This document shows positions 57 through 22,618 of a stretch of DNA of 39,531 bases, piece after piece (the first letter of the stretch is position 1; each line of letters begins with the position of its first letter). This DNA comes from a virus (Duplodnaviria > Heunggongvirae > Uroviricota > Caudoviricetes), in IMG/VR virus record IMGVR_UViG_2548876950_000007; one strand, written 5' to 3'. A model generated the notes under the pieces. It saw nothing but the letters and a program-made list of their open reading frames with translations, had not been told where the DNA came from and did no database searches. The position numbers and the translations under genes were made by a program.

Positions 57-617
57 TTAGGATTGAAATGATGACGCCGGAAACTTCTTATAAAGCGTGG
101 AAACAGCCACATCATAGATGATTGCAACCTGCTTACGGGGGATGCCCTTCTCGAGCAATCGCCGCATTTGCTGCCATGTTTCTTCTTGGTATTTAGGCCG
201 ACGCCCACCTATACGACCTTCTGCGCGAGCTGCATCAAGTCCAGCGCGTGTACGTTCAACGATAAGCTCACGTTCCATTTCTGCCAGCGCCCCCATTACG
301 TGAAAGAAAAAGCGCCCCATTGGTGTACTGGTGTCGATGGAGTCAGTGAGACTCCGGAAGTTAATGCCTCTGTCACGCAGCTCTTCCACCAGCACAACTA
401 AGTGACGCATGCTGCGCCCAAGACGATCTAACTTCCATACGACTAGGGTGTCACCTCTGGAAAGCATACGGAGAACCTTTTTTAACCCAGGGCGTTCAGC
501 CTTTTTGCCGCTCGCCTTGTCCTCAAAAATTAGCTCACATCCTGCGCTTTCAAGGGCATTTCGTTGTAAAGCAGTGTTTTGTTCATTTGTTGATACGCGT
601 ACATAGCCAATTAACAT
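57..617 (-). CDS. cin: serine-recombinase DNA invertase Cin (186 aa)
   Basis: N-terminal MLIGYVRVSTNEQ...LDRLGRS resolvase/invertase catalytic domain and C-terminal HTH; Hin/Gin/Cin family; size matches P1 Cin. Confidence 0.9.
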   Translation of the reverse strand: MLIGYVRVSTNEQNTALQRNALESAGCELIFEDKASGKKAERPGLKKVLRMLSRGDTLVVWKLDRLGRSMRHLVVLVEELRDRGINFRSLTDSIDTSTPMGRFFFHVMGALAEMERELIVERTRAGLDAARAEGRIGGRRPKYQEETWQQMRRLLEKGIPRKQVAIIYDVAVSTLYKKFPASSFQS

Positions 618-675
618 ATTTTCTGCTCACCATAGTTATTCATAGCAAGCTGCGGATTTTAATTAACAGAAACCA

Positions 676-1026
676 GTGTGTGTGGAAATCACAAAGTGCA
701 TACCGTGCCCCAATGATGTTTTATTGAAAAGCGGGGTTACTTTAATGTTTGATTTAACCATATTTTTTATAACCATCCTTGGAGGCGTGCATTCGTTTCT
801 GAATGGGGTTCGTGAAAAACGTTACGAAGCGTCATGCAGGCAATTGATGGCCGAGTGTATTGCTGCCGTACTTGCAGGCTTTATAGGCATGTATTTCGCG
901 GAATATAAGGGTATGGATGAAAGTCTTCAGAATTGCGTGACTATTATTTGCAGCATCAATAACAGGCTCATTCTTGAAAAGTTACAAAGGATTATCGATT
1001 CGTACCTCAATAGAAATGCCTCTTAA
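676..1026 (+). CDS. small membrane protein, holin-like; first gene of the lysis/dar operon (true start may be the internal ATG near 745)
   Basis: ORF with two hydrophobic segments, co-oriented and upstream of the holin/antiholin pair. Confidence 0.4.
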   Translation: MCVEITKCIPCPNDVLLKSGVTLMFDLTIFFITILGGVHSFLNGVREKRYEASCRQLMAECIAAVLAGFIGMYFAEYKGMDESLQNCVTIICSINNRLILEKLQRIIDSYLNRNAS

Positions 1027-1093
1027 GCAACAAATGACCGATTGAGAAGTTACTTTGCATACCATTACCTCCTGACAACGTAGGAGGGAACTT

Positions 1094-1423
1094 GTGCTTG
1101 ACACACAGGAATTAGCTCCAGTTGCTATTGCGCTCCTGCTTTCAGTAATTGGTGGGATAGGCACGTTCCTGATGGATGTCCGAGACGGTCGCCAGTCTGG
1201 CAATTTGTTGGGATTGGTTACGGAGATCTTTGTTGCAGTGACAGCTGGCGCGGTGGCGTACCTATTGGGGCAACACGAGGGCTGGGAGTTATCAATTACG
1301 TACTTAATGGTAACGATAGCCAGCAATAACGGTCATGAGGTGATTTCAGGGATGAAACGAGTGAATATCGATAGCATTCTGAATGTTCTTACAAGTTTGG
1401 TGAAAAAGGGAGGCGGGAAATGA
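1094..1423 (+). CDS. lydA: holin (LydA-like, 109 aa), GTG start
   Basis: GTG start preceded by AGGAGGG SD (1083-1089); two predicted transmembrane segments; size and position match P1 lydA from memory. Confidence 0.5.
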   Translation: MLDTQELAPVAIALLLSVIGGIGTFLMDVRDGRQSGNLLGLVTEIFVAVTAGAVAYLLGQHEGWELSITYLMVTIASNNGHEVISGMKRVNIDSILNVLTSLVKKGGGK

Positions 1424-1863
1424 TTGGCTGGGGTGTATGCGTTCTTGCGTTAGCCTTAGCCGATCGCTATTTGCTAAAACGCAAGGACATCACGCATTTA
1501 GAACTTGGTGATGTGGAAATTAAACCGGGTTTCATCCGGGTGCCGTTCAAATACCGGTCTAAATTCCCGTTTTTGCGCGGCGCAACGGTCAGATATTGGA
1601 TCCGCGATGTTCAGAAGCCGACGACAGTGATTGAAGGCGAACAACGTTGTCTGACGTCGGCTGAACAGGGCGAAAACAGTGAATGGTTGTACATACCCAC
1701 TGAATATATGGGTAAAGGAGAGCGACTGTGGCATTTCAACGTCATGGTTACGCATGGCGACTCGTTCATTAACCCGTTGTATCGGATTTTCCCTGTTACT
1801 CAGCAAATCCGCAGAAGTTACGTAATAAATCTCGCACAGGATGTGTCAGATGACGAAAAATAA
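1420..1863 (+). CDS. lydB: antiholin (LydB-like, 147 aa)
   Basis: ATGA start/stop overlap with the preceding holin gene; size and synteny with P1 lydB. Confidence 0.5.
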   Translation: MIGWGVCVLALALADRYLLKRKDITHLELGDVEIKPGFIRVPFKYRSKFPFLRGATVRYWIRDVQKPTTVIEGEQRCLTSAEQGENSEWLYIPTEYMGKGERLWHFNVMVTHGDSFINPLYRIFPVTQQIRRSYVINLAQDVSDDEK

Positions 1864-2452
1864 GTATGCAACGGTCGATTTTGACCAGGTTAATGAAAAG
1901 GGGCTGAAATCCCTTATCGCGGCGATCAATAAAACCGGGGTTACGGTAATTGAGGTTGACTCCAGCAACCGCGCAACAACGAAAGATGGCGTTAAAGTTA
2001 AAACCGCAAAGCTGGTTCTTAACGACGGACAAATCCTTGCCATACAGGTAAACGATACTGGCGATATATCGTCTGTGAAACTGAATGGAAAAGCTATTCC
2101 TAACGCTCAGTCGCCGGATATCAAGACGCTTGGTACCGTCATGGGACAGGCGGCCCGCAAAAACTCCGCAAAATTCCAGAAATCACTGATCGCCAAAGCG
2201 AAGCGTGTAGCCAATCCGGTAGACAAGAAACCGGCAGTTAAATCCAACTTTCAGCGCCTGCAAGAAGCAAAACAGCGGAATGCTCAGGTGGTTGCCGCTT
2301 ATAAGTCCGCGCAGAATTCGGTGTCTTTCAATCAACAGCAGATCACTGATTTGCGGGCGAAGCTGGATAAGGAGACAGGCCGACTCAATAACGAAAAGGC
2401 CCGAAATGGCGAACTCAAACGCCGTCTTAAGCAACTGAAAGCAGGAAATTAA
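1841..2452 (+). CDS. hdf: Hdf, homolog of a DarA fragment (about 200 aa; start 1841 or 1850)
   Basis: Shares the KNSAKFQ segment and a 21-nt near-identical stretch with darA (2159-2179 vs 3057-3077); lies directly upstream of darA. Confidence 0.6.
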   Translation: MCQMTKNKYATVDFDQVNEKGLKSLIAAINKTGVTVIEVDSSNRATTKDGVKVKTAKLVLNDGQILAIQVNDTGDISSVKLNGKAIPNAQSPDIKTLGTVMGQAARKNSAKFQKSLIAKAKRVANPVDKKPAVKSNFQRLQEAKQRNAQVVAAYKSAQNSVSFNQQQITDLRAKLDKETGRLNNEKARNGELKRRLKQLKAGN

Positions 2453-2453
2453 C

Positions 2454-4373
2454 ATGGAACAGTTCAATATCAATAAAGGGGTGACGATCAAGCCTGGGCT
2501 TGACGTGCTTCCCCCGCCAGTGACTGATGATGAATATCGCGCATTAATGGCCGGTGAGGACCGCTATCTGATGACGGAATCCAACACCCTGGAGGAAATC
2601 GAGGCTACGTTCTTCTATGACACGCCGATCCACTGGTGTGCTACGGATTTACTGGAGGCGATTAGTTCTACTCGTTTGCAGTTACACCGGACCATGCAGG
2701 CATTTGTCCGGGCATTGAACCAGAAGCTGAATGGTACCGGAATCTCTGCGGGGAGTGATAAAACGGGGGATGTGGCCCAGAGCGGCGCGCGCGCGATCGG
2801 CGGCGCTGAAATTGGCCGGGCACGTAACGTTAACGGGCTGCCGGTCTTGCCAGCCATTATTCCGCTCAGTGATGGTCAGACTATCAGCATTCTGTTTCAT
2901 AGCCCGACAGCGGAAAACCGGATCACCAATAGCGATACGCTGGTTGCTTTCCAGTTCTTACTGAATAAAAAAGACGTTACTCACACAGTTGCTCCGATGA
3001 GTGGACGTGATATGACGCTGGCGCAGGTCACCATGAAACTTGCCAACCTTGCAGAGAAAAACTCGGCAAAATTCCAGCGTGCGCAGAAGAAGAAAAAAGC
3101 CCTTGTTGATGAAATAACCCAACTACAGGCTGACAGTGACCAGAAAGAGGATGCCATGAGCGACCTCGTGGATCAGGTGGCAGCGGTAGAAGGGCAGAAG
3201 GCAGATCTGGAGCAGAAAATTAACGCTGTTGCATCGGAAGCGGATTCTCTTTATGAAGAGAATGAGCGTTTGCAGACGGAGATTGATCAGCTCAATCGCA
3301 CTGGTGGGCGCGATACCATTGCTCCTGCGGGGATGACTGGTGGACACTCTCGCGCGATGATGGATCGCCTTGCCAGTATCAAAAATCGTATGCATATGAA
3401 CGGGGAAGTGACGCTCAGTAATGGTGCATCAATGAAGCAATTCATTGAGGACGGCGAAGGGTATATCCAGTTAACCGATTCGGATGGCAGCGTGTACATG
3501 ATCAAGGCTAAATCCATACAGGGTGTGGACATGGCAGATGCGATCGGCAAGCTGTTTAAAGCCTATAAAGCGGGTAATGTATCGGAATACCTGGTCCAAC
3601 CAGAAGAACATAAACCGGAAAACGTCGAACCTGAACCAGCGGAGGATACCGGTAGCTCTTCGCCTGAACCAGAAGTCTCTGTAGGGGCATATCGATATGC
3701 CCTGCAAATGCGTCCGGCGGCCCCTGGCGCAATACCTGAAGGTAACAAAGCAATTCTGCCGCGCCCTGATGAAGGTGACCCGTATTATGAATATGCACGC
3801 TACGGCATTGCTACTTACGATACCCCGCTTTCTGATCAGCAAATGAGTGAGTACGACCTGAAGTTATTGCCTCGCGAGGATTCTTTCGACTTCCTGGCGA
3901 AGACACTTACTAATGGTCCGTTTGGCAAATATGCACAAAAAGCTCTGGAGCTGGCCACCAGCTCACCAGACGAGTTCCGCGTAATGCTGAAAACTCAGTT
4001 TCAAAAAACTTTCCCCAATATTGCGTTTCCGGGGGGCGCTGGCACCGAGAAAATGGTGCAGAGCATGATCAATGCATTGCAGGCCGAAGTCGGTGAGATT
4101 ACTCAGCCAGAACCTGCCCCGGCACAGCCTGATGAAACGGTTAGCGAAGCAGATGTAGAGGCTAATAAAGCCATTGAATATCTCAATAACGTGATGGATA
4201 TGCAAAGCACTGACATGGCGGAGATCCGTAACGCCCGGGGTAATGTCCGGGAAGCGATTGCAGCCCTTCAGGCTGCCGGGCGTTTTGAGGAAAACGAAGA
4301 GCTGGTTAATGGCGCTGCTCGCCACCTGGCTGATCTGCTGGTAGCAATCCAGAAAGCGGGGGTAGCGGCATGA
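2454..4373 (+). CDS. darA: DarA, virion internal protein of the Dar anti-restriction system (639 aa)
   Basis: Size, coiled-coil-rich sequence and operon position hdf-darA-ddrA-ddrB as in P1. Confidence 0.75.
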   Translation: MEQFNINKGVTIKPGLDVLPPPVTDDEYRALMAGEDRYLMTESNTLEEIEATFFYDTPIHWCATDLLEAISSTRLQLHRTMQAFVRALNQKLNGTGISAGSDKTGDVAQSGARAIGGAEIGRARNVNGLPVLPAIIPLSDGQTISILFHSPTAENRITNSDTLVAFQFLLNKKDVTHTVAPMSGRDMTLAQVTMKLANLAEKNSAKFQRAQKKKKALVDEITQLQADSDQKEDAMSDLVDQVAAVEGQKADLEQKINAVASEADSLYEENERLQTEIDQLNRTGGRDTIAPAGMTGGHSRAMMDRLASIKNRMHMNGEVTLSNGASMKQFIEDGEGYIQLTDSDGSVYMIKAKSIQGVDMADAIGKLFKAYKAGNVSEYLVQPEEHKPENVEPEPAEDTGSSSPEPEVSVGAYRYALQMRPAAPGAIPEGNKAILPRPDEGDPYYEYARYGIATYDTPLSDQQMSEYDLKLLPREDSFDFLAKTLTNGPFGKYAQKALELATSSPDEFRVMLKTQFQKTFPNIAFPGGAGTEKMVQSMINALQAEVGEITQPEPAPAQPDETVSEADVEANKAIEYLNNVMDMQSTDMAEIRNARGNVREAIAALQAAGRFEENEELVNGAARHLADLLVAIQKAGVAA

Positions 4374-4735
4374 CACTATCAGCTATTGAGTTAATGGACC
4401 TCAGCGACAAGTTGGATTCTCTGATGTCCAAAGCTGCTACCGCGAGTGGCATGGAGTTGCTGGATATCAGCGATGAAATTGACCAGATCATGCAACAGAT
4501 GGGGTACGGCGCGTCCGGCGGTGGTAGTGGCGAGGAAAAACAACCTTCGGAACATGATGGTGTGCCAAAACTGGTTGCTGATTTCCTGGCTGATAAATTC
4601 GTCGATCAGAGCACAGATGCATTTATCGGTACCTTGCAGGACTTGAGTCAATATGTTGGCACATACATCGACCTGGACCAGGTTAAACAGCACACGGCGG
4701 CATGGATAGCCGCCAACATTGAAGAGGCAGCATAA
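4370..4735 (+). CDS. ddrA: DdrA (121 aa)
   Basis: ATGA overlap with the darA stop; size and synteny. Confidence 0.55.
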   Translation: MTLSAIELMDLSDKLDSLMSKAATASGMELLDISDEIDQIMQQMGYGASGGGSGEEKQPSEHDGVPKLVADFLADKFVDQSTDAFIGTLQDLSQYVGTYIDLDQVKQHTAAWIAANIEEAA

Positions 4736-4747
4736 GGCGTAACAGGG

Positions 4748-7735
4748 ATGAGCTTAAGCGATCAGGTGGTAATTGCCACCAGCATAGAAACGCTGATCGA
4801 GCTGCTTAAGAACCTGCCCGATTATGGGCGGGTTTCGTATGTGGTGACAGCGAAGGGAGACGAGGTAAAAACAGCGTTTGATATCGTCGATGCCTCAGCT
4901 CTTTTGGTATCCAATACTCTGGATGGGAAAATTAATCCTGACTATCCCCAGGAACTTCAGCCGCGCGACCGGACCCGCGCATCCAGCCTTCTTCAGGTTA
5001 ACCAGATATCCAAAGATTTGCGGCCTGCTCAGCTTACCGATTCCGGTTTATCCAGCCATGGCGCGCCGATAATTGGTGAGGACAATGCCGTTGAGTCAGG
5101 TAATGGACGGACCATGGGAATCATTAAAGCCTATCAGGACGGCAATGCGGATCGGTATCGTGAGTACCTGATTGAACATGCGACCGAATTCGGCATACGA
5201 CCTGAAAAGGTTGAATCAATGACGGCTCCTGTACTGGTGCGCCGCCGGTTAACTAAGGTTGACCGCGTTCAGTTTGCCAAGGACTCAAATATTTCTGATC
5301 TTCAGGAAATGGCAGCCAGTGAAAAGGCTTTTGTTGATGCCGACAGCATAACACCGGCGATGATGGCGCTGTTTAATCCGTCAGAAAGCGGAGATCTGCT
5401 TAGCCGCAGTAATGACGCGTTTATTCGCGGATTCATGACGCAAGTTGGTGCCACACAGGCTGCTGGCCTTGTAACGGAAGATGGGCGACCAACGCGGCAA
5501 CTTGTTGACCGTATACAAAACGCGATCTTTGCCAAGGCATATAAGGATGCGCGCCTGGTAAGGATGGTTGCAGAAGAACCTGATCCGGATATGCGTAATG
5601 TTCTGACGGCGCTTAATGCGGCAGCCAATGATTTTGTCCAGATGCAGGCTTTATCAGGAGAAGCGCACAAGCAGGCTGTGACAACTATTGTTGATGGCAT
5701 TGAGACAGCGGATAGCCTCGATAAAAAGGCGCTGGCGGCATTGAAAGATGCGGTAGACCTGGTAAGGCAATCGAAGGAGTCAGGCCAGCATATTACCGAT
5801 GTTATTGCTCAGGGGGATATGTTCAGCGAAACGGCCCCGGAAGTGAAAGCACTCGCGTTGTTCATCGTCGCGAATAACCGTAGCGCGAAGCGTATGGCCA
5901 CCGCCTTTAAGTTGATGGCGCAACGTATCAATGATGAGTTACAGCACCAGGGCCAGGCGCTCGGGGATATGTTTGGCGGCGGCGATGTGTCGTTACAGGA
6001 TATCCTTCGCCAAGTATCTCAGGAACTGGAAAACGAAGGTATGCAAGGGATATCTGGCGGTCTTTTCGAGTCAGCTTCTGGCGGTAGTTACAACGGTGTT
6101 GCTCCATATACCAGCTTGCTATTACATCGGGCATCCGGCATCAAAGACATTATTCATCTGATCAGGCTGCTTTCCCGTACAGATCCCCAGGATGAACAGC
6201 TTGTTCAAGTGCTTGCGCATTTTGTTCGAATGCCTGTTGCCGACGTGAAAAAATGGTGCCGATTATTCGGTATCAGCAATTCGTTACTTCGCGGCTTGTT
6301 AAATCACGCATCCTCCCTTGGGCGCGATGGCTTTGACGAGATAGCGCAGGCGATAAAAAACGGAGATATGCCACCAGCTATTGACTGGTTTTCCATTCGC
6401 CCAACCAGGGTGAAAGCATTCCTTAGCGCGGCGCATTCGGCATCACCATTGGCAGAAATGGTTCAGAGGTTGTCGCTCATATTCACAGACCATACCGCGT
6501 TGGGTGATCTGACTCTGGACGAGATGAAAGAAGCCTCCATTCAGTGGGCCGATCAACAAAATGAGGTTAACTCTGACTTCTTGCCAGCATTCAGGAAGGC
6601 CGTTAGTAAAGCGGATGATGCCCGTGGAATTCTGAAGGCATTTAAGGCATTGCAAAGTCGGGTTAATAAACATGTCGGTGATATCGATGGGGTAACGGCG
6701 GAAGGCAGGGATATCCTTAAAGAGCACGGCATAACGCCAGAGTTTATTGATGAGATCAGGACGGATATGCAGCGTGAGGTCGTATCGTCCCTGCAAATCG
6801 TAGCCAGAGCGTTGGCGGATGCTAATCCGAAGAGTGCGGCCATTGTTAACCGGGTTATTGGTGATATTGAAGCATCGGAGGGCATGGGGGCGCTGAAACT
6901 CTTCCTTTCGCGAGCGTTTAATCCTAACGGCAATATTCTCCCTGGCATTATTGGTGAGGCTAAAAGGTATGTCAGTGAAGAAGAACTTGAGCAGCTTGAC
7001 CAACTACTTAAGCGATTCTCATATAACCCGCAGACACGCTGGCAAATGAATCAGCGAAGTATGGGTTCGGTCCACGAGAAAGTGTTATCTGCCATGAACA
7101 GTGCGATCGCAAACTCATCCGTATCTGAAGAAAAAGCTCTTGAGTGGGCCGACTCTTTTATCACGGAAGAAGTGGAAGAAGCCCGCGCTGGACAGAATGG
7201 TGGGATAGACCTGCGCAAGGAACTTGCTGATATTTATCGCCTGACCGGCGGTAAAATTTCGACCTTATCAAAGGTGGTTCACCACCAGGGAAGGGCATAT
7301 GCAAATCTTAATGGTGTTGTTGCTGTCAATTTGAACGATGAAAATGCAAGTGCACTGTGGCACGAGCTGGGTCATCATCTTGAGTACAGTAACCCTGGTT
7401 TGTTAGAGAAAGCCCGGTCATTCCTGAAGGCCAATGTTGAAGGGGATAAGCCATCTTTCGTTAATATCGGTGGGCGTGGCAAGCCTGAATGGTGCTTCAG
7501 ATCTCGATTGAGTAATATTTATATGGCGAAGGTATACCCGCCAGCCTTAGTGAGTAATTCCGGGAAAATTCGGCAGAAATCACCGACTATTTCCAAAACG
7601 TCAGCAACGGAAGTATTCTCTATGGCTCTTCAGTTGTATCATGACAAAGAGGCCACTGCCGCATCACTGATGAATGGTGACGGATTGCTGGAACTGTTAT
7701 TAGGTGTGGCAAAGGAGCTAAATAATGCAGATTAA
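4748..7735 (+). CDS. ddrB: DdrB (995 aa), large Dar-operon protein
   Basis: Single 995-aa ORF downstream of ddrA; size and synteny with P1. Confidence 0.6.
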   Translation: MSLSDQVVIATSIETLIELLKNLPDYGRVSYVVTAKGDEVKTAFDIVDASALLVSNTLDGKINPDYPQELQPRDRTRASSLLQVNQISKDLRPAQLTDSGLSSHGAPIIGEDNAVESGNGRTMGIIKAYQDGNADRYREYLIEHATEFGIRPEKVESMTAPVLVRRRLTKVDRVQFAKDSNISDLQEMAASEKAFVDADSITPAMMALFNPSESGDLLSRSNDAFIRGFMTQVGATQAAGLVTEDGRPTRQLVDRIQNAIFAKAYKDARLVRMVAEEPDPDMRNVLTALNAAANDFVQMQALSGEAHKQAVTTIVDGIETADSLDKKALAALKDAVDLVRQSKESGQHITDVIAQGDMFSETAPEVKALALFIVANNRSAKRMATAFKLMAQRINDELQHQGQALGDMFGGGDVSLQDILRQVSQELENEGMQGISGGLFESASGGSYNGVAPYTSLLLHRASGIKDIIHLIRLLSRTDPQDEQLVQVLAHFVRMPVADVKKWCRLFGISNSLLRGLLNHASSLGRDGFDEIAQAIKNGDMPPAIDWFSIRPTRVKAFLSAAHSASPLAEMVQRLSLIFTDHTALGDLTLDEMKEASIQWADQQNEVNSDFLPAFRKAVSKADDARGILKAFKALQSRVNKHVGDIDGVTAEGRDILKEHGITPEFIDEIRTDMQREVVSSLQIVARALADANPKSAAIVNRVIGDIEASEGMGALKLFLSRAFNPNGNILPGIIGEAKRYVSEEELEQLDQLLKRFSYNPQTRWQMNQRSMGSVHEKVLSAMNSAIANSSVSEEKALEWADSFITEEVEEARAGQNGGIDLRKELADIYRLTGGKISTLSKVVHHQGRAYANLNGVVAVNLNDENASALWHELGHHLEYSNPGLLEKARSFLKANVEGDKPSFVNIGGRGKPEWCFRSRLSNIYMAKVYPPALVSNSGKIRQKSPTISKTSATEVFSMALQLYHDKEATAASLMNGDGLLELLLGVAKELNNAD

Positions 7736-8030
7736 AATCGCAGCGCCATTAGGCGGAGATGCCATTATCGAATTTGATGATAATGAAGAAGTTTCCGGGC
7801 GTTTAAGCATTATCTCCGGTAACATTACCGAGGACATGATCGCTGAAGCCATAGCTGGGGCAAATCCCAATAGCTATATGGGATTCGTTAACACCCTTGA
7901 TGCTCCCGCAAGTGATGTTCTCCGAACGCTGCATCTTTACGCTGGCTGGTTTGTTGATTGGCCAGCAGTAGAGGGTGGCGATGAGGACGACGATGATTTC
8001 GGTGACAATATTAATCAGATTATATTTTAA
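7725..8030 (+). CDS. hxr: Hxr-like small acidic protein (101 aa)
   Basis: Overlaps the ddrB stop; size and synteny. Confidence 0.45.
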   Translation: MQIKIAAPLGGDAIIEFDDNEEVSGRLSIISGNITEDMIAEAIAGANPNSYMGFVNTLDAPASDVLRTLHLYAGWFVDWPAVEGGDEDDDDFGDNINQIIF

Positions 8031-8189
8031 CCCATATGAGATATAATCGTTCTAATGGCATAAAGTTAGATTGTTCTTATATTCGACTTTGTGCCATCAT
8101 TAGGACTAATCATTTAGGGGTTCTTTTAGGTAGAAATTTAGCAATACATGTTTAGTATGGCAATATTTTCTAAAGGAGTTAGGTAAAAA

Positions 8190-9068
8190 GTGAAAAGAAT
8201 TATTCCTGATAAAAAATGGTTAAAAGAAGAAAGCAGTAAGCGACAAGTGCCATCAGAATGTCCCTATGCAAATTCATATCGATGTCCTAGATATCACGAA
8301 AGTGTTATTTTGTTCTCACAGATGCAAATGATTGATGGCATGTCATATAATAAAGAGAAGGAGTTGAAACAGTTCTGGGAGAGAACCGACCTCTCTTCTT
8401 TATGTAATGGAGAAACCCCGTTGGTCTCAAAAAATGATAAAGGCGGGATTTTCTCTATAGATAATTTCTGTCCAGAAATATCGTTTAGATATTTAGGTTA
8501 CTATGCAGACTATATGCTGAGATACATTGATGAAGATGCTCACACTATAGGGTATGGCATAGCTAAAAGAGATCAGAAAGAAAATGATTGGAAGTATGAT
8601 TGGTCCGAGGTCAATGCTGTTTTCTATGAGGATTGTTACCTCTTTGAGAGAGTTAAACAATTCAATAAAGAACTTCATGATAGTTTCTTTAAAAGACTAC
8701 ATCCGAATATTGTAATGCAAATAAGTAGAATGGATAAGTGTTTGGACTCAAATGACCCAACCGGTGTTTTGCATGCGGCATCTAATATTCTAGAAACAAT
8801 GGCTAAAGAAATATTAGATGATCCAAATGTATTAAATAAATCGTTTGGCTCTTTTTTTGAGAAGTTTAAAAAAGAGTCAAAGTTGCCGTTAGGGTTTATT
8901 AATGCAGTTAAAGATATTTATGACTTACGTAATAAAATACCTACTGCTGGTCATGGGGGGGTGGGGATGCCTGGGTTATCTTTATCTGATGCCATAATGA
9001 TTGCTGCATCAACAAAGGCTATTGTAGAGATTGAGTACAGAAACATTGATGTGGCTGCTATTGATTGA
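8190..9068 (+). CDS. hypothetical protein (292 aa), AT-rich, at the position of P1 isaA; GTG start
   Basis: About 35% GC against roughly 48-50% for flanking genes; SD AAGGAG at 8173-8178; four N-terminal Cys; C-terminal LRNKIPTAGH motif. Confidence 0.5.
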   Translation: MKRIIPDKKWLKEESSKRQVPSECPYANSYRCPRYHESVILFSQMQMIDGMSYNKEKELKQFWERTDLSSLCNGETPLVSKNDKGGIFSIDNFCPEISFRYLGYYADYMLRYIDEDAHTIGYGIAKRDQKENDWKYDWSEVNAVFYEDCYLFERVKQFNKELHDSFFKRLHPNIVMQISRMDKCLDSNDPTGVLHAASNILETMAKEILDDPNVLNKSFGSFFEKFKKESKLPLGFINAVKDIYDLRNKIPTAGHGGVGMPGLSLSDAIMIAASTKAIVEIEYRNIDVAAID

Positions 9069-9108
9069 GCTAATATAGCGAGGTTCCTTTTTGTATCGTT
9101 CGAATTAT

Positions 9109-9126
9109 CCCCGCCTGTCGGCGGGG
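9109..9126. terminator. bidirectional hairpin between convergent genes
   Basis: ccccgcc-tgtc-ggcgggg, perfect 7-bp GC stem; corresponds to where P1 carries IS1 (from memory). Confidence 0.5.
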
Positions 9127-9132
9127 TATAAC

Positions 9133-9915
9133 TTAATCACTTTCTACCTCTTCCGTTGAGTTTTCCAATGCTGCGCGACACAATTTCCTGGCATTGGTTA
9201 TAGCCACACTTTTTACCTCATCCGTCATTGTGCAGGTAATGTACTGATCGAGTTCTTCAGCTCGGATGATGCTTTTCCCAATCATAAACTCTATTTGCCA
9301 GAGCAGATCGGCATCCATCGTCAGTATTTCAGCCTGGCCTTCTGGGCCTGCGGGGAAGCAAACATAAGACTGTTTGCCCAGGCCGATAACTCGACAACTT
9401 GCTTCAAGAATTGCACGCTTGAGGTCTGACTTTGTAACTGAAACAGGTTGATTTTCACCTGTGATTACGCCGTTGGCATGGACGTGGAAGGGCATGTAGC
9501 TTGAAATTCGCTCTACTTTCCATACGCCAGCAAGCGATCCTTCATGCAGCACAATGGGGGTAACCGCGAGTTTCATCTCACCATATAACTGCTGGCAGAT
9601 AGCTGGATTGCTGAATACATCCAAAGGTTCACACTCAAACAGCGGTGCAATCTGCATGAGGTCCATCATGGTCATACCAGGGGTACGAGCAGTAATGAAT
9701 CTGCGCATTCCAGTATCCATTGTGCGCCAGATAGCTACACCATGCTTTTTGCTCACTTCTTCAGTAAAGCCAAGGTGGCACATGATGGTTTTTTCGATAG
9801 CCAGATCAGAGATAGAAACCTTTTCGCCTGGCACGCCATCATTATTGATGGTCACTTCGACACTCTGGCCATTACGTAGGCGGTATTGAATGGTTTTAGT
9901 ATTTTGTGCTGTCAT
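9133..9915 (-). CDS. hypothetical protein (260 aa), at the position of P1 isaB
   Basis: Intact ORF convergent with the 292-aa gene; backbone-like composition. Confidence 0.45.
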   Translation of the reverse strand: MTAQNTKTIQYRLRNGQSVEVTINNDGVPGEKVSISDLAIEKTIMCHLGFTEEVSKKHGVAIWRTMDTGMRRFITARTPGMTMMDLMQIAPLFECEPLDVFSNPAICQQLYGEMKLAVTPIVLHEGSLAGVWKVERISSYMPFHVHANGVITGENQPVSVTKSDLKRAILEASCRVIGLGKQSYVCFPAGPEGQAEILTMDADLLWQIEFMIGKSIIRAEELDQYITCTMTDEVKSVAITNARKLCRAALENSTEEVESD

Positions 9916-10093
9916 AGTCTTTTCTCTGCTTAAAAACTGATGTATTGCGCCTTCAGGTTGGTTAGGAATGTTTTCCCACCAGCGAAAGCAATATCTCGGG
10001 GTGTTCTATTCGTTAAAATCGCGTGCCATTGCCAACTTTGGCGTTTTTTAGCGAGTTCGTGCTTTTGTTGGCGCCTGGACCACCGCTTTTCTT

Positions 10094-10600
10094 TCAGTCG
10101 TTTTTTACACATTCAAAACGGAATATCGTCGTCAAAGTCCATTGGAGGTTCGTTATTGGCATTGCTCTGAGGTTTACCGCCACCGCTGTATTGCTGGTGG
10201 TTTTGAGGTTGGTTCGATTGCCCCAGCCATTTGAGGACTGCGAATCGTCACGGCGAGTGCCAATCATTTGCATGGTGCCACCCTGGCTGACGATAATTTC
10301 CGTCGTATAACGTTCTACACCGACGTCATCTGTCCACTTACGGGTTTTAAGTTTCCCTTCGATGTAGACCTGAGAACCTTTTCGTAAATACTCACTCGCA
10401 ATTTCAGCAAGTTTTCCGAACAAAACGACTTTATGCCATTCTGTTTGCTCTTTCTGTTGGCCCGTTTGCTTGTCGCGCCATGATTCATTCATTGCGATGC
10501 TGAGTCTTCCGACTGCGCCGCCATTTGGTATATATCTGATCTCCGGGTCTTGTCCCAGGGTACCAATCAGGATGACTTTGTTTACACCGCGTTGTGCCAC
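10094..10600 (-). CDS. ssb: single-stranded DNA-binding protein with an apparent frameshift; the conserved C-terminal tail is out of frame
   Basis: N-terminal OB-fold matches SSB ([13 protein letters not shown]...[16 protein letters not shown]); the [11 protein letters not shown]-stop tail is encoded in another frame ending at 10113; frames would join with one extra C in the C4 run at 10221-10224. Confidence 0.7.
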
Positions 10601-10619
10601 TTATCTTACCTAATAAAAT

Positions 10620-10636
10620 GAATTAATTAGAGCAAT
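10620..10636 (-). promoter_or_regulatory. C1 repressor operator upstream of ssb
   Basis: gaattaattagagcaat matches 15/17 of the asymmetric P1 C1 operator consensus ATTGCTCTAATAAATTT (reverse complement). Confidence 0.6.
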
Positions 10637-10768
10637 AATGTATATCTTTGAAACGTAGCTAACAAGTGATTTTCATTATCCTGTGCCTTCTAAAGGGATC
10701 GAGTCAGTCGGTATTGGCTGTGAATGGGTGTTTGTCCTGGAGCGTAAAAATTTGCTTATGAGGTCTTT

Positions 10769-11326
10769 ATGAAGGGAAAAACAGCCGCAGGAGGCGGTGC
10801 AATTTGCGCTATCGCGGTGATGATTACCATCGTGATGGGTAATGGCAATGTGCGAACCAACCAGGCGGGGCTTGAGCTGATTGGTAACGCTGAAGGTTGC
10901 CGACGTGATCCATACATGTGCCCGGCAGGGGTATGGACTGACGGGATCGGTAATACACACGGGGTAACGCCGGGTGTGCGAAAAACAGACCAGCAAATCG
11001 CCGCTGATTGGGAAAAGAATATCCTGATCGCTGAACGCTGTATTAATCAGCACTTCCGGGGCAAAGACATGCCCGATAATGCCTTCAGTGCAATGACAAG
11101 CGCGGCATTCAATATGGGATGCAATAGCTTACGGACCTACTACAGCAAAGCGCGAGGCATGCGAGTAGAAACGTCCATCCACAAGTGGGCGCAGAAAGGG
11201 GAATGGGTGAATATGTGTAACCATCTCCCTGATTTCGTGAACAGTAACGGCGTGCCCCTGCGAGGTTTAAAGATTCGCCGTGAAAAAGAACGCCAGCTTT
11301 GCCTGACGGGGCTTGTCAATGAATAA
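10769..11326 (+). CDS. lyz: endolysin Lyz (185 aa)
   Basis: N-terminal signal-anchor-like hydrophobic segment followed by a lysozyme domain; matches P1 Lyz in size and sequence. Confidence 0.85.
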   Translation: MKGKTAAGGGAICAIAVMITIVMGNGNVRTNQAGLELIGNAEGCRRDPYMCPAGVWTDGIGNTHGVTPGVRKTDQQIAADWEKNILIAERCINQHFRGKDMPDNAFSAMTSAAFNMGCNSLRTYYSKARGMRVETSIHKWAQKGEWVNMCNHLPDFVNSNGVPLRGLKIRREKERQLCLTGLVNE

Positions 11327-11611
11327 ACTCCGGCAGCTCCGCCGACTTTCGACAATGAAGTTATCGCTGGCGGCGATAGTTTTTGACTCGATTTTCATGG
11401 CGGTATATGTGCTCAATGAGACGTGGCCACTGGAACCGCTATTGTATGCCGGACTTCGGCTGTGCCTGACATTTTTGAGCATGGCTGCGAGATTGATGCA
11501 GCAGAAAGAAACCGCTTCAGATTGTCCACGCCGCGCGGTGCGCAAATATATGGCACGAAGGCGATAATAGTTAACGAGAACCCCGGCAGCTGCCGGGGTT
11601 ATTTTTGGTGG

Positions 11612-14342
<2,731 letters not shown>

Positions 14343-14408
14343 TTAATTAGAATAATTCGCATCGTGTTTGAACGGAATTTAACACTAGTCACTTGTTAAG
14401 GATTACCA

Positions 14409-17400
14409 ATGAACAAGCTATCTATGGGGGTGTTTCGCTGTTCAAGTGTCAGCGAAATATTGAAATACATTAGGGCAATAACATCTCACCGAGCGCCGAT
14501 TAAATACGGCGTGGAAAAGGTGGAAGGCAAAAGCTATGACCGACTGCGCCGGGAGGCGAATCAGAAGGCGATAGATTTGCTTAATTCGCTGGTGGACGGC
14601 GCGACACTGACAGATGAACAGCGCCAGATCCTGGCTGGGTACACCGGTGAAGGCGGCATTGGCGGGTCCGTCTCCGAATATTACACACCAAAGCCTATCG
14701 CTGAAGGTGTCTGGGAGATCATGAAGCTCTATGGCGCGGACGTAGGTAACACTCTGGAACCATCGGCGGGCACCGGCGTTTTTAATGAGACAAAACCGGT
14801 TGGTACGGTGATGACCGCAACTGAGATCAGCAGTGTTTCCGGTCGTATAAACCAGCTGTTACACCCGGAAGACAGCGTACAGATTTCCCCGTTCGAACAG
14901 CTGGCTGTAAGCACGCCTAACGATTCATTCGACCATGTTGTGGGTAACGTTCCGTTCGGTGGTCGTGATAACACACGCAACATCGATAAGCCTTACGCAG
15001 AAGAAACGGACATGGGTTCTTACTTCATGCTCCGCATGCTGGACAAGATAAAGCCAGGCGGATTCATGTGCGTGATTGTGCCGCCGTCCATTGTTTCAGG
15101 TTCAAACATGAAGCGGTTACGCCTGCGCCTATCACGGAAAGCTGAATTTCTTGGTGCCCACCGCTTGCCTACCGGTACTTTTGACGCAAACGGGACCAGT
15201 ACGGTCGTAGATGTGGTGCTGATGCGCAAACATCCGGCAGAGATGGCTGAGAAAATCCCCCTGGTGGATGAAAGCACTCTTGAATTGGCAAATGTGCTTT
15301 GGCCAACGTTTATTTCTGGCAAGTGGTTTGAAAAGGACGGCCGCCGGTTTGTTCATGGTACCCAGGAAAAGGGCTTCCAGGGGCGTATTGAGGTTCGTGC
15401 CGACGGGCAGATTGATAACCAGGCTCTTAAAGCGAAGCTGATTCATCGTTTCGAAAGTCGTATCGACTGGTCTTTGCTAGATATGGCTGAACCGTCACCG
15501 ACAGCAGACGTTGTTGATGAAGGGGAAATGCGCCTGATTAATGGCGTATGGCAAAAATATGCTGGTGGTCGCTGGATTGAAGCTGATGCTGGTAAGGAGC
15601 TTAAGATTGATGCTGCCAGTTATGGCGCGGATAGCTGGGAGGCTCTTCAGCGTAACCTGACTACAACAGAAGGCCGTCTCGGTATGACATTTACCCAGAT
15701 GGCAAATGTCCGCGATAAGTACACCACATCAATCAGCGACGATATGGTGCAGCTGGTGGACTGGATTAACAGCCAGCCTGAAAAATACCGTGAACGCTTG
15801 TATCGCGGGGCAATGATTGGCCGGATGTTAATTGAATATCAGGATATGAAGGCCGCCGGGCATAGTGCTGAACAAATCGAACAGCAGCGCCTTTCTCTGG
15901 TATCCCGTTTGCAGGCAGAGATTGACCGTTTTGGTAACCCCGGTCGCGGTCCGATAGCGAAATTATCGGGGAGCGGTGCGCGCGCCTGGTTTGCTTTCCG
16001 TGGTGCAATTAAGCTGGATGGCACTATTTCTGACGAGCTGACAGGAAAACTGGTTACGCATGATTCCAGCGCCAGTTATGACTCCACCAGCTATCAGGAC
16101 ACCCTGCGTTATCTCTACAGTGATCTCACTCGCGATCCAATCCAGCTCGATGATTTCCGCCTTGCGTTTACCGGCGAACTGCCAGCCAGTGATGACGAGT
16201 TGCTTAATTTATTGGCCAGCACCCCTGGCATTGCGGTTTCACCGTATGGCGGGATTGTTCCGTTCGCCCGCGCCACCAGCGGAGACATTAACGAGATAGT
16301 GGCACCAAAACAGGAATTCCTTGCCACACTCCCCGACGGTCCAGTAAAGAACAACGTCCTTAATCAGCTGGCAGCGATCGAAGAGAAGCGCATCAAGACG
16401 CCAGCAGAGAATATCCGCTTTAAGCTCAATAGCCGTTGGTTCGACCGTTCCGTCATTCTGGAATTTTTGCAGGAAAACGGCTATCCGGATCTTCGCTATG
16501 TGCAGTCAGTGCAGCTGGAAGGCGACGAAATGGTTTCTGACACCTATCACGGTGGTGATGGTCTGTTCGTCGGGCACCGATACGGTGTCGTCCAGCGCAA
16601 GGATAAAGAAACAGGCGAGATCCGCTACGAGTGGGACCGTAAATCAGGTGAAAACGCGACCGGGTTCCCGGCACAGCTGGAAAAGTATCTCAATGGTGCG
16701 CGTATCGGTGGCAAAGATAGCGCGACGGCGAACGGCTACCGCGAGCAGGTGGCACTGCTTGAGGACCAGTTCAATAAGTGGATCAAGACGCACGATCGCT
16801 ACGATGAGCTGGTTGCCAAATACAACGATGTTTTCAATAGCAATATCCCGTATGAACACTCTGGCGATCCGCTTGGGTTGAAGGGATTAAGCGGTAAGCG
16901 ACAGCCATTTGATTACCAGAATAGCGAGGTGCGCCGACTGTCCGAAGATGGGCGCGGCATCCTGGGCTTCGGTACCGGGCTGGGTAAAACCACGACCGCG
17001 CTGGCGCTTGAGGCGTTCAACTATGAGAACGGTCGCTCCACCCGTACTGCTTATGTAGTGCCTAAATCAGTGCTGGAAAACTGGTATTACGAAGCAAAAG
17101 AGTTCCTGAGTGAAGAAGCCTTCAGTAACTACCTGTTCGTCGGTCTGGATGTACTGATGGACGGCGATCAGATTCGCCAGGTGCCGGTGCTCAATGAGAA
17201 CGGTAAACCTGTACTTGATGCTGATGGCACTCCACTTATGCGCGATGCCCTTAAGCTGGCAGATGAAGCCACTATCACGGCGCGGATGAACGCGATCCCG
17301 CACTCAAACTACCGTGCAGTCGTGTTTACCAAAGAACAATACGCCCGCATTCCGCTACGTGATGACACCGTAGATGAGCATGCACAAGACATGCTTTATG

Positions 17401-20400
17401 ACTTCGTTGCTGCCGGGCGTGTGGCCAGCGCAATGGACTCCGATTCCCATCGCAAAGAGGCGGCGCGTCGCCGGGTATTGTCGGAGTATTCAGATACCGG
17501 TACCGAAAAAGCAGAGAAGTATCCGTACTTTGAGGATATGGGCTTCGACAGTGTGATCGCCGACGAAGGCCACAACTACCGCAATAGCTATAAAAATGGT
17601 CGCGAAGCGTCACAGCTGGCCTATCTGCCCACCAGCGCGGTGGCGCAATCGGCGCGAGATATGGCAATCAAAAACGCGTACCTGATGAAAAAGAATGGTG
17701 GGCGTGGACCGGTTCTCCTGACTGCAACGCCAGTCGTTAACACCCCGATCGATGCATACAACATGCTTTCTCATGTTCTGCCGAAGGAATACTGGCAGAA
17801 GATGGGGATCTACGGTCCTGATGACTTCGTTAAATTCTTCGGCAAGACCAGGCTGGAAACGGTACAGAAAATCAGCGGTGAAGTTGAAGAAAAAATGGCG
17901 CTGGTGGGCTTTGAAAACCTTGATGCGCTGCGCGGCATATTCCATCGCTGGACAACGCTTAAAACGGCGGAAGACGTTAAGGATACCGTGGAGATCCCGG
18001 AACTGGACGAACACCAGCAGGATGCACCTCTTACTGAAGAACAACTGGCGGCGTATGAAGAATTGCGTCAGCAGGCGGAAGCGGCGGCCAAAGCCAACAA
18101 TGGCGTAACGACCTCGGCCAATGAAGACGGCGTGATTGAGCACGAGAAAGCCCGTCCGATCTTCTCAATAATCAGGGATATGGACCGCGTATGTACTGAC
18201 ATGGACCTGTACTATCGCCGGATCACCTATCGTTTCCTGCCGGAGTACGCCGATGCGGTGCAGCAGCTGGCGGACAGTTTGCCTAAACAAGCCACCAGCG
18301 AAGACGACGACAGTGATGATTCAATCACGCAGCAATCGCAATACTCCCTGATAGATAAGGGCGAGTTTATTCAGTTGCAGGTTCCGGAAGCGTTCGAGCA
18401 GGAAGTGAATAAGCGCCTGGCCAGGTTTGGCATTGACGAACAGACCGTAACTCACCCCGTTACACCCAAATACGCGAAGCTGATCGCCACGCTGAAGGAG
18501 TTTTTCCCGGAAGGTAAGCAAATCATCTTCACGGACGAAAAAACGCAGCACCAGAAGCTCAAGCGCATTATCTGCAATGCTCTTAACCTTGAACCTTCAA
18601 AGGTGGGGATCCTGAATGCTCAGACGGTTGCCGAGGCAGGTAAAACCGGTAAGAAACTGAAAGCGGTTAAACCGCCGAAAGAGTTACCGGATGAACCAAC
18701 AGATGCACAGATAGCGAAATACAACGAGCAAATGGCTCTGTATGACGCCTATATCGCGCAGCAAAATGAAATGTCGTTGGGCGGTCTGGAAAAGATTGCA
18801 GCAGACTTCCAGGAGGGCCGGACTCCGATCATCATCTGCAACAAAAAGGCAGAGGTGGGTATCAACCTGCATCGAGGAACGACTGACATCCATCATCTGA
18901 CGTTGCCATGGACACCAGCCAGTATCGCACAGCGTAACGGTCGCGGTGCCCGAGTTGGCTCCAACCGTGCAAGCGTTCGCGTTCATTACTACTGCGGCAA
19001 GGGTTCTTTCGATGAATACCGACTGAAGACGCTGAAGCGTAAAGCAGGCTGGATCTCCGATATCCTCCGTTCAGATAAGTCAGAAATGGAGAACGCCGAC
19101 GCCAACGATATGATCGAAATGCAGATGTATACCGCTAAGGATGATGGCGAACGTCTGGCAATGATGCAGGTTCAAATGGATAAGGCGAAAGCCGCGCAAC
19201 GCGCTCGCCAGAAAGAACAGGCTACTATCGACCTTCAGAACTACATCAAGGCGCAGCACGCAGCTGGCGAGGATGTGGAGGTACTTACCGCTGAATTAGA
19301 GCGAAACAAAGCGGAACTTGAAAAGACCACCGCCGAGGTAGCTAAATTCAAACAGGCGGTAATGGCCAAAGCAGCTGATAACGCAGACTGGAAAGCCCGC
19401 TGGGGTAGCGTCCATCACACAGACCGTACGTTGTTAGCACAGTATCGCGCGTCGTTGAAAAGCGCCATTCAGCGCAAGGCTAATATCTCTCAGGCCATCT
19501 CCCGCTATGAGAAATTATTGAACCGTACTCAGAAGGCCGCGACAGATATCAAACGCCTGCGCCCGCTGGTGGAGGATGCAATAAATAAAGGCATTCTGGA
19601 TGTTGATCCTGATCTGGTTAACCATGCGAATGAGTTTCTTGTTATCGGCGATCGCTCATGGCGTGTAGGCCAATACTACGATTGTGCCGGTGATATCGTT
19701 CGCATTAAGTCGCTGGACTTCGACAGCCAGCGCGCAGACGTGGAGATCATCTTTACCTTCAAAGGCACCAAATCGGGTAACTGGGATGTGAAGACGCTGG
19801 ATAAACAGGTGGATGTAACTCCCGATGAAGATGCTGTTATGCAGAAAATCAGTGGTGGCGTCTCCATCGCCGGGATTAACGACATCATTTCCTGTGACGA
19901 TTTCTACCGTTTCCAGCAGCGCGGCATGATCAAAATCACTGACTCATACGGCGTTCAGACTACAGAGTCAGGCTATAGCATTGATTTTGTTGGCACCTAT
20001 ACGGACCCACTGAAGCATGCGGTTTACCCGGATCGCCGTGACGGCGCGCTGAAGTCGTCAATTGCAAAATGGGTGCTTGGTATGATGTCGGAAGGGAATA
20101 ACCGCCAGATCCGTTCGGCAGAAACATTCCTGGTTGAATTGTTTGGCTCCAATTATGGCGATGTAATCGCGTCATACGGAGATACGCTATCCCCTGAAGC
20201 AATTCAGGAGAAAATAGCGGATGCGATCGCCAGAATGCCGGAAAAAACAAGCCAGGGGTCTACTCGTAACGGGGATTCTGAACTTGAAGTCACCAATGCC
20301 ATTTTCGGTACCAATGAGTTCCGGGCGTCAGATTATGAGATCACCACAGCACAGTTTGGCACCATTGGCATTTACAGCAATAAAGACGAGATCAAGCAGG

Positions 20401-21176
20401 CAATGGACGCAGCAAGCGCGCGCATCGCAGCAGAACGGGAAGCCAATCTGAATCATGCAGTCGCCGCGCTGACTCAATCGTGGGTAACAGCAATCAGGGA
20501 GGCCGCCACCACAGGGAAAATCACACCTGCAATTGCGGATGTCGTAAACGACGGCTCTAAATTTATGGATGCCTATAAAATGGATTCGGTGCAGTTGCCA
20601 TCAGCCTATGGCCAACTCAGCTATCGCATGACCTACAACCTGGTATCAATGTTTTCCGACCTTGCCATCCTTGGGCTGGTGGATCTTAACGAGGTTACGC
20701 CGGAATTGCTCAGCATGCGCAAGAATCATGTGGAGATATTGCAGAGAATTAACACGGTTCTTGCCGGGCGCACCGATGAAGAGAAACAGGCAGACGCTGA
20801 TCGGATAAACCTGGCCCTTGGTAACATCACGGAGGAGGAAATTGCCGCCAGAAACGAGAAACAAGAAGAGTTATCATCAATACAGGGGGATGCCACCAGC
20901 ATAGCTCAGTCTCTTGGTCTGAATTATCGCGTATCCACTGCCGACCTGAAGATGATGTACGCACCAAAATTCGCCTCTGGCGAGGTATTTGGGCTTCAGG
21001 AGGCGTCCGGCATGAAAGGTGTCCTTTTCCGTGCTAAAGACGCAATCAAGGTGAAATTCGGCGCTCGCTGGCTGCCAGCGAAGGCGAAGAACAGCGATTT
21101 CCCGGGTAACTGGTGGATTATCGAGACAAAACACAACGTGGCGGACGTTCTGGCCGTCATCCAACAATACGCATAA
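14409..21176 (+). CDS. darB: DarB, giant anti-restriction protein (2255 aa) with an N-terminal N6-adenine methyltransferase-like domain and a central DEAH-type helicase domain
   Basis: SAM-binding motif EPSAGTGVF, NVPF motif, Walker A GTGLGKTT, DEGH box; size matches P1 DarB. Confidence 0.85.
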   Translation: MNKLSMGVFRCSSVSEILKYIRAITSHRAPIKYGVEKVEGKSYDRLRREANQKAIDLLNSLVDGATLTDEQRQILAGYTGEGGIGGSVSEYYTPKPIAEGVWEIMKLYGADVGNTLEPSAGTGVFNETKPVGTVMTATEISSVSGRINQLLHPEDSVQISPFEQLAVSTPNDSFDHVVGNVPFGGRDNTRNIDKPYAEETDMGSYFMLRMLDKIKPGGFMCVIVPPSIVSGSNMKRLRLRLSRKAEFLGAHRLPTGTFDANGTSTVVDVVLMRKHPAEMAEKIPLVDESTLELANVLWPTFISGKWFEKDGRRFVHGTQEKGFQGRIEVRADGQIDNQALKAKLIHRFESRIDWSLLDMAEPSPTADVVDEGEMRLINGVWQKYAGGRWIEADAGKELKIDAASYGADSWEALQRNLTTTEGRLGMTFTQMANVRDKYTTSISDDMVQLVDWINSQPEKYRERLYRGAMIGRMLIEYQDMKAAGHSAEQIEQQRLSLVSRLQAEIDRFGNPGRGPIAKLSGSGARAWFAFRGAIKLDGTISDELTGKLVTHDSSASYDSTSYQDTLRYLYSDLTRDPIQLDDFRLAFTGELPASDDELLNLLASTPGIAVSPYGGIVPFARATSGDINEIVAPKQEFLATLPDGPVKNNVLNQLAAIEEKRIKTPAENIRFKLNSRWFDRSVILEFLQENGYPDLRYVQSVQLEGDEMVSDTYHGGDGLFVGHRYGVVQRKDKETGEIRYEWDRKSGENATGFPAQLEKYLNGARIGGKDSATANGYREQVALLEDQFNKWIKTHDRYDELVAKYNDVFNSNIPYEHSGDPLGLKGLSGKRQPFDYQNSEVRRLSEDGRGILGFGTGLGKTTTALALEAFNYENGRSTRTAYVVPKSVLENWYYEAKEFLSEEAFSNYLFVGLDVLMDGDQIRQVPVLNENGKPVLDADGTPLMRDALKLADEATITARMNAIPHSNYRAVVFTKEQYARIPLRDDTVDEHAQDMLYDFVAAGRVASAMDSDSHRKEAARRRVLSEYSDTGTEKAEKYPYFEDMGFDSVIADEGHNYRNSYKNGREASQLAYLPTSAVAQSARDMAIKNAYLMKKNGGRGPVLLTATPVVNTPIDAYNMLSHVLPKEYWQKMGIYGPDDFVKFFGKTRLETVQKISGEVEEKMALVGFENLDALRGIFHRWTTLKTAEDVKDTVEIPELDEHQQDAPLTEEQLAAYEELRQQAEAAAKANNGVTTSANEDGVIEHEKARPIFSIIRDMDRVCTDMDLYYRRITYRFLPEYADAVQQLADSLPKQATSEDDDSDDSITQQSQYSLIDKGEFIQLQVPEAFEQEVNKRLARFGIDEQTVTHPVTPKYAKLIATLKEFFPEGKQIIFTDEKTQHQKLKRIICNALNLEPSKVGILNAQTVAEAGKTGKKLKAVKPPKELPDEPTDAQIAKYNEQMALYDAYIAQQNEMSLGGLEKIAADFQEGRTPIIICNKKAEVGINLHRGTTDIHHLTLPWTPASIAQRNGRGARVGSNRASVRVHYYCGKGSFDEYRLKTLKRKAGWISDILRSDKSEMENADANDMIEMQMYTAKDDGERLAMMQVQMDKAKAAQRARQKEQATIDLQNYIKAQHAAGEDVEVLTAELERNKAELEKTTAEVAKFKQAVMAKAADNADWKARWGSVHHTDRTLLAQYRASLKSAIQRKANISQAISRYEKLLNRTQKAATDIKRLRPLVEDAINKGILDVDPDLVNHANEFLVIGDRSWRVGQYYDCAGDIVRIKSLDFDSQRADVEIIFTFKGTKSGNWDVKTLDKQVDVTPDEDAVMQKISGGVSIAGINDIISCDDFYRFQQRGMIKITDSYGVQTTESGYSIDFVGTYTDPLKHAVYPDRRDGALKSSIAKWVLGMMSEGNNRQIRSAETFLVELFGSNYGDVIASYGDTLSPEAIQEKIADAIARMPEKTSQGSTRNGDSELEVTNAIFGTNEFRASDYEITTAQFGTIGIYSNKDEIKQAMDAASARIAAEREANLNHAVAALTQSWVTAIREAATTGKITPAIADVVNDGSKFMDAYKMDSVQLPSAYGQLSYRMTYNLVSMFSDLAILGLVDLNEVTPELLSMRKNHVEILQRINTVLAGRTDEEKQADADRINLALGNITEEEIAARNEKQEELSSIQGDATSIAQSLGLNYRVSTADLKMMYAPKFASGEVFGLQEASGMKGVLFRAKDAIKVKFGARWLPAKAKNSDFPGNWWIIETKHNVADVLAVIQQYA

Positions 21177-21650: not shown

Positions 21651-21895
21651 AAAAGCGATACTACACAGTAAAGCATGGGACGCTACGAGCATTACAAGAG
21701 TTTGCTGACAAGCATAACGTTGAGGTGCGCAGGGAAGGGGGAAGTAAAGCTCTGCGCATGTACCGTCCTGACGGAAAATGGCGGACGGTCGTCGATTTCA
21801 AAACTAACAGCGTTCCCCAGGGCGTCCGCGACCGGGCATTCGAAGAATGGGAGCAGATCATCATAGATAATGCATTGCTTCTCAATGCTGATTGA
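21647..21895 (+). CDS. lxc: Lxc/Bof co-repressor-like protein (82 aa)
   Basis: 82-aa ORF overlapping the ulx stop; size and synteny with P1 lxc. Confidence 0.5.
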   Translation: MKKRYYTVKHGTLRALQEFADKHNVEVRREGGSKALRMYRPDGKWRTVVDFKTNSVPQGVRDRAFEEWEQIIIDNALLLNAD

Positions 21896-21903
21896 GTTTT
21901 GTT

Positions 21904-21923
21904 GGCCCGGTTTGCACCGGGCG
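21904..21923 (+). terminator. intrinsic terminator hairpin after lxc
   Basis: ggcccggt-ttgc-accgggcg followed by a T-rich stretch. Confidence 0.5.
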
Positions 21924-21977
21924 TTTCACAAACAATCAACTGGTTTGTAGTTCCTGCGGCGAGATGAATTATTAATA

Positions 21978-22586: not shown

Positions 22587-22594
22587 AGTATGGT

Positions 22595-22618
22595 GAGTCC
22601 TTTGTTTTCAAAGGACTC
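22595..22618 (-). promoter_or_regulatory. perfect 9-bp hairpin overlapping the only SD-like sequence of the GNAT gene
   Basis: gagtccttt-gttttc-aaaggactc ends 8 nt upstream of the ATG; no U-tract after it. Confidence 0.4.

Follow-up and report, generated by a model that had tools for sequence, protein, structure and literature searches.

Probable recent loss of one G from a short tract detaches the acidic tail from the ssb product of a P1-like phage-plasmid

When the ssb gene of a phage-plasmid ends in the wrong reading frame, has the organism lost the partner-binding tail of its single-stranded DNA-binding protein, or has a base been lost from the record? The question is raised by a stretch of 39,531 nt (IMG/VR record IMGVR_UViG_2548876950_000007), hereafter the window, for which an earlier note, made without database searches, described an ssb gene with an intact OB fold and a C-terminal tail displaced into another frame at a short homopolymer. 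Three causes were left open in that note, namely a homopolymer sequencing error, a phase-variable tract and a real inactivation of the tail.

The ssb locus and its frameshift

The window covers part of a P1-like phage-plasmid: starting at the cin end, it takes in the lysis and dar genes, ssb, lyz, pro, prt, darB, cre, c1 and the pac genes and reaches the phd/doc side. Its identity to phage P1 and to many P1-like plasmids of Escherichia and Salmonella is about 97-98%; no record identical to the window was found in the phage, plasmid and E. coli collections, the best matches reaching ~98% over long stretches. The ssb gene is an orthologue of P1 ssb (P1_gp016), with 96.3% DNA identity over 701 nt and conserved synteny with lyz, from which it is divergently oriented, as in P1. 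The P1 protein is the SSB-P1 of Lehnherr et al. 1999.

Base-by-base transfer of the P1 annotation places the regulatory region of ssb at 10603..10665 on the minus strand, as are all ssb features given below. The -35 (10665..10660) and -10 (10642..10637) elements of P2ssb are identical to those of P1, and so are the -35 and -10 hexamers of P1ssb and the GTG start codon. The C1 operator Ossb (10636..10620) matches that of P1 at 16/17 positions; its last base (10620) is changed from T to C on the coding strand compared to P1, as it is in the E. albertii plasmid CP034163. Located behind this C1-controlled operator, ssb should be repressed in the lysogen.

As written, the ssb open reading frame (10094..10600) starts with GTG, terminates at a TGA (10096..10094) and encodes 168 aa. 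The OB-fold domain responsible for ssDNA binding and tetramerisation (residues 6-106; 10283..10585) is in frame and intact, and matches the Pfam SSB profile PF00436 with 134.1 bits (cut-off 26; profile positions 1-100 of 104) and TIGR00621 with 167.1 bits (cut-off 53.95). The frame is wrong from residue 128, past a run of four Gs in the linker (10221..10224; C4 on the plus strand) which is the longest G/C run of the gene. Consequently, residues 128-162, comprising most of the disordered linker and the entire SSB-Ct, are lost, and 41 unrelated residues followed by a stop codon (10094..10219) are gained. The coding sequence for the native 35 residues and stop (10113..10220) is still present in the -1 frame, where the SSB-Ct motif is encoded intact (10140..10113) and the last codons read CCA ATG GAC TTT GAC GAC GAT ATT CCG TTT TGA, with the TGA at 10115..10113, in agreement with the endpoint at 10113 given in the earlier note. 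Instead of the acidic DFDDDIPF, the product terminates in FRFECVKND, as that note had also read, and, by charge count, the 41-residue extension has a net charge of +3 compared to -4 for the native 35-residue tail.

Insertion of a single G into the run (one extra C at 10221-10224) joins the two frames into a 162-aa Ssb, as had been predicted, and this protein differs from the Ssb of E. albertii plasmid CP045689 by a single substitution, T37M. The profile comparisons reproduce this picture: the Pfam SSB match is the same in the written and repaired versions (134 bits), whereas NF006533, which describes enterobacterial SSB, gives 226.3 bits and covers profile positions 1-135 of 177 for the written protein, below the cut-off of 260, but gives 267.5 bits and covers positions 1-177/177 for the repaired one. 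The central claim of the earlier note, an intact OB fold and an acidic tail removed by the frameshift at the G run, is thus verified.

In an alignment with P1 (NC_005856, AF125376) and three P1-like plasmids of E. albertii, the sole gap falls in the G run, which reads GGGG in the window and GGGGG in 5/5 relatives, such that one nucleotide is missing from the window at a run that is G5 in every close relative, including P1, with which comparison had been suggested. Three residues (T37M, A93V and A115T) separate the repaired protein from P1 Ssb, and of these T37M is private to the window; it is the missing G of G5 that converts residues 128-162 into 41 out-of-frame residues. The nearest relatives are the E. 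albertii plasmids p2RM10705 (CP045689), p06-3542 (CP034163) and pEA16-1_1 (CP117651), which are 99.3-99.4% identical over 701 nt and share with the window identical tail-coding sequence downstream of the run and an identical neighbouring cassette with its 260-aa ORF; unlike the window, they have the G5 run, and their 489-nt CDS is intact and bears the annotation single-stranded DNA-binding protein. The suggestion that this lineage might naturally lack the tail is therefore contradicted, given its presence in relatives with 99.4% identity over the 701 nt of the ssb region. The presence of five Gs in the reference and in the close relatives identifies G5 as the ancestral state, but does not in itself refute a frameshift in the sample from which the window derives.

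Codon 37 (10490..10492) is ATG (Met) in the window and ACG or ACA (Thr) in the relatives, a missense change within the OB fold that is private to the window and is the only substitution in the ssb CDS compared to the closest relative. Residue 37, which precedes by four residues the Trp corresponding to W40 of E. coli, is Thr in 113/114 related SSBs with the motif, and the codon is ACG or ACA in 81/81 related loci. A change at a nearly invariant residue is weakly suggestive of relaxed constraint on ssb, and implies that even the function of the OB fold is not guaranteed.

Sequencing error versus mutation

The most serious alternative to a genuine mutation is that a true G5 was under-called and that ssb is intact in the organism. 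Under-calling of a G/C homopolymer from five to four bases is a classic indel error, all relatives carry five Gs, and the tail codons downstream of the run are pristine, all of which is in keeping with an error. The 108 nt following the run contain no substitutions relative to the three E. albertii plasmids, indicating that the event, if real, would be young; such pristine sequence fits a very recent mutation and an error alike.

The evidence of the assemblies points in the opposite direction. The exact 168-aa product was recovered from two sources, the NCBI contig that corresponds to the window and the Logan collection, forming a cluster of one from a single sample. Over the 20,507 nt compared, contig SRR21142951_118 of Logan (28,370 nt) shows 100% identity with positions 94..20600 of the window, and G4 is the single path in both assemblies. 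For Logan, each SRA run is assembled separately with Cuttlefish2 and Minia3 from 31-mers that occur two or more times (PMC12424806). The shortened run is hence present in repeated 31-mers of the raw reads and does not stem from a single assembler or polishing step. Very probably, the NCBI and Logan assemblies share the same reads, in which case a systematic miscall at the level of the reads would show in both. The perfect agreement of a 28-kb contig with the other assembly would imply that the reads are accurate. Both assemblies also split the ~95-kb plasmid into pieces of 28-40 kb, as is usual with short accurate reads, in which indels in 5-nt runs should be rare.

Comparison with four references (about 34 kb alignable) likewise argues against an error. 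The gap in ssb is the only isolated, uncompensated frameshifting indel that is private to the window. The remaining small indels form compensated pairs where the sequences diverge, have lengths divisible by three, coincide with breaks at the ends of alignments or are poly-A/T differences between genes. The window contains 556 homopolymers of at least 4 nt; 381 of these are comparable, and 379 of the 381 agree with at least one reference. The two runs discordant with every reference are the ssb run, the only one inside a gene, and an intergenic T9, whereas none of the 21 G/C runs of 5-7 nt was flagged as discordant. A generally noisy assembly was also considered and rejected on the basis of the indel and homopolymer scans. 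The T9 run (24417-24425) is located between the homologues of c8 and ref, with no open frame of at least 150 codons across it, and corresponds to T7-T8 in the references, which vary among themselves.

The G tract among P1-like ssb alleles

The state of the tract in other elements was assessed in two ways. A pattern scan that allowed 4-6 bases at the run found G5 in 54/54 IMG/VR contigs, 21/21 metagenome contigs and 1/1 GTDB genome contig, with neither G4 nor G6 among these 76 contigs. The second approach was a G4-specific megablast query, on the tract part of which G5 records are unable to seed, joined to 60 nt of conserved OB-fold sequence as a control. In the plasmid collection, the control matched 498 records and the G4 part 0/498, and among complete E. 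coli records the control matched 500 and the G4 part 1/500, leaving 499/500 without G4; these counts, which are not independent because the two collections overlap, pertain to G4 on alleles with CAATC(G/A) beside the run, the query being blind to G6 and to a G4 of the CAGTCA allele.

The sole E. coli record with G4 is plasmid p3 of E. coli E1624 (NZ_JBXYCD010000004.1), in which ssb (AC083T_RS25000) is marked by PGAP as a 'frameshifted' pseudogene. The G5-to-G4 change is the same as in the window and affects the same tract, but the allele is clearly different, with about 20 substitutions, another 3' flank and a product that would be 166 aa long and end in RFRVNL, indicating an independent event. 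One other gene is marked as 'frameshifted' in the 50 kb of this plasmid that were examined, an observation which favours sequencing error.

A search with the full-length 168-aa protein retrieved the same junction (GWG, one of N, S or H, then.TNLKTT) in proteins P0002, P0003, P0004, P0124-P0127 and P0129. Overall, the tract junction occurs on several allele backgrounds (P0001-P0004, P0124-P0127, P0129 and E1624 p3), and the 9 distinct proteins with a tract frameshift compare with 2151 different sequences in the main cluster of intact ones. Of the disrupted alleles retrieved, more are broken at the G tract than at any other point. P1-like ssb is also broken elsewhere, by an upstream frameshift (P0005/P0130), by a shift into the third frame (P0012/P0131), at an A4 run (P0121), by a premature stop found on 5 contigs (P0010) and by truncation (P0128).

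The G4 examples differ in quality. One (L089) comes from a clean Logan assembly with 3 gap openings in 4 kb compared to P1. In another (L090; ENA ERZ1714329 contig_269), which carries its G4 on the CAGTCA allele, there are 28 gap openings in 4.5 kb compared to P1, and the portal and pro genes are fragmented, so that it resembles an uncorrected long-read assembly and the G4 of its ssb is probably erroneous; the occurrence of the same G4 in such an error-ridden contig counts in favour of a miscall in the window as well. Accordingly, sporadic loss of the accessory P1-like ssb recurs in nature, and the G tract is a rare site of natural mutation and also a site of sequencing error.

With the evidence on both sides taken into account, we regard a miscalled G5 as unlikely, and the G5-to-G4 change in the window as probably a real, recent and isolate-specific slippage deletion. 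The three causes that the earlier note had left open can thus be ranked: real inactivation is favoured, with G4 repeated in an assembly built straight from raw-read 31-mers; sequencing error is less likely; and phase variation is disfavoured by the shortness of the tract and the essential fixation of G5.

Consequences of the tail loss and the remaining alternatives

Under the preferred reading, slipped-strand loss of one G would have inactivated the tail while the promoters, the C1 operator, the start codon and the OB fold were retained. By analogy with E. coli SSB, the resulting protein could still tetramerise and coat ssDNA, but could not recruit SSB-Ct-dependent partners, such as the Pol III chi subunit and ExoI. 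The SSB-Ct is the partner-docking element, and C-terminally blocked SSB fails in ExoI binding and in strand-displacement synthesis by Pol III and is dominant-negative at high copy (PMC7293020). The closest experimental counterparts of the window protein are a GFP fusion (SSB-C-term-GFP) and tail deletions of E. coli SSB, in which the OB fold is likewise kept and the SSB-Ct unavailable, with DNA binding in the absence of partner recruitment being the expected outcome (PMC7293020). However, those variants are engineered alleles of an essential host gene with the tail deleted or capped, whereas the window carries an accessory phage copy, nonessential for P1 (PMC10695390), in which the tail is replaced by unrelated sequence. 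The frameshifted ssb would therefore be a loss-of-function allele and at most mildly dominant-negative.

Such a loss would be tolerated because P1 ssb is nonessential, because the host SSB would suffice for its function and because the lysogen should keep the gene under C1 repression. When P1 ssb was knocked down by CRISPRi, the EOP in plaque formation was 0.57, and the gene was scored as nonessential (PMC10695390). According to a secondary citation in PMC3208561, P1 SSB can complement E. coli ssb-1. The window ssb thus looks like an ordinary pseudogenisation, of an already known kind, of a known and dispensable phage gene. It is properly labelled a frameshifted ssb pseudogene or tail-less variant, and represents neither a functional Ssb nor a new type of SSB. 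The case illustrates that the accessory P1-like ssb is dispensable and now and then lost in nature, and its main value lies in annotation and quality control: those who deduce interactions between phages and the host replisome from the presence of an SSB-Ct should check the G tract. No new biological question arises unless the tail-less form proves to be selected.

Selection for a tail-less variant would mean that loss of the SSB-Ct is advantageous, for instance, by escape from a defence system that senses phage SSB or by altered host replication. The recurrence of P1-like ssb disruption in nature, the retention of promoters and OB fold, and T37M, the one residue differing from the nearest relative, which also alters the protein, are compatible with this possibility. 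Set against it, the frequency of the allele is far below 1%, no lineage on record shows its spread, the cluster consisting of one member from one sample, and the disruptions are heterogeneous (various frames and nonsense changes), as one would expect of neutral loss. Selection of the tail-less variant is accordingly improbable. Similarly, we attach a low probability to the broader reading in which the G tract of P1-like ssb serves as a switch that mutates at a low rate or selection favours the tail-less allele, a reading kept in consideration by the recurrent, independent hits on the tract and the preserved promoter and OB fold. If it held, some phage-plasmids would deliberately dispense with the SSB-Ct tip, for instance, to evade a host defence that responds to phage SSB; alternatively, the benefit might lie in poisoning host SSB tetramers upon induction.

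A phase-variable contingency tract, with high-frequency slippage in the G run switching ssb or its tail ON and OFF, is very improbable, despite the independent hits on several allele backgrounds. Contingency loci have tracts of about 7 nt or more, whereas the run in question measures 4 nt (5 ancestrally), and the tract is neither long nor commonly polymorphic: G5 was found in 76/76 contigs and, within the alleles covered by the query, in 498/498 plasmids and 499/500 E. coli records, while the ratio of 9 tract-frameshift proteins to 2151 intact sequences fits rare mutation or error rather than a switching polymorphism. Programmed recoding, in which a -1 ribosomal frameshift or transcriptional slippage would restore the native tail in some of the products, can be dismissed as extremely improbable: the native tail does lie in the -1 frame, with a 132-nt overlap, and a -1 shift on GGC would give GWGQSN..., but there is no X XXY YYZ heptamer within this overlap (the only one, A AAA AAC at 10106, lies downstream of the native stop codon), transcriptional slippage requires a longer run than G4, and a single 489-nt ORF is present in all close relatives, such that the two-frame layout is not conserved.

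The window also departs from P1 outside ssb. Downstream of the gene (8005-9915), the isaA-IS1-isaB block of P1 is replaced by another cassette, which is common to the E. albertii P1-like plasmids and contains the 260-aa ORF (9133-9915, minus strand) and an ORF of roughly 292 aa at 8190-9068 (293 codons when taken as the plus-strand frame 8187-9068), neither of which has a match in Pfam. Inside the latter ORF there is a G7 run (8955-8961), also present as G7 in the two related loci that share its flanks; as the longer of the two, it is more liable to slip than the ssb tract. At 21893-22840, the EcoPI res-mod genes and IS5 of P1 (P1 3413-9752) are absent and a short segment is present instead, with a 209-codon open frame (21978-22607, minus strand) that is the counterpart of a GNAT N-acetyltransferase annotated in P1-like plasmids of E. 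fergusonii and E. coli.
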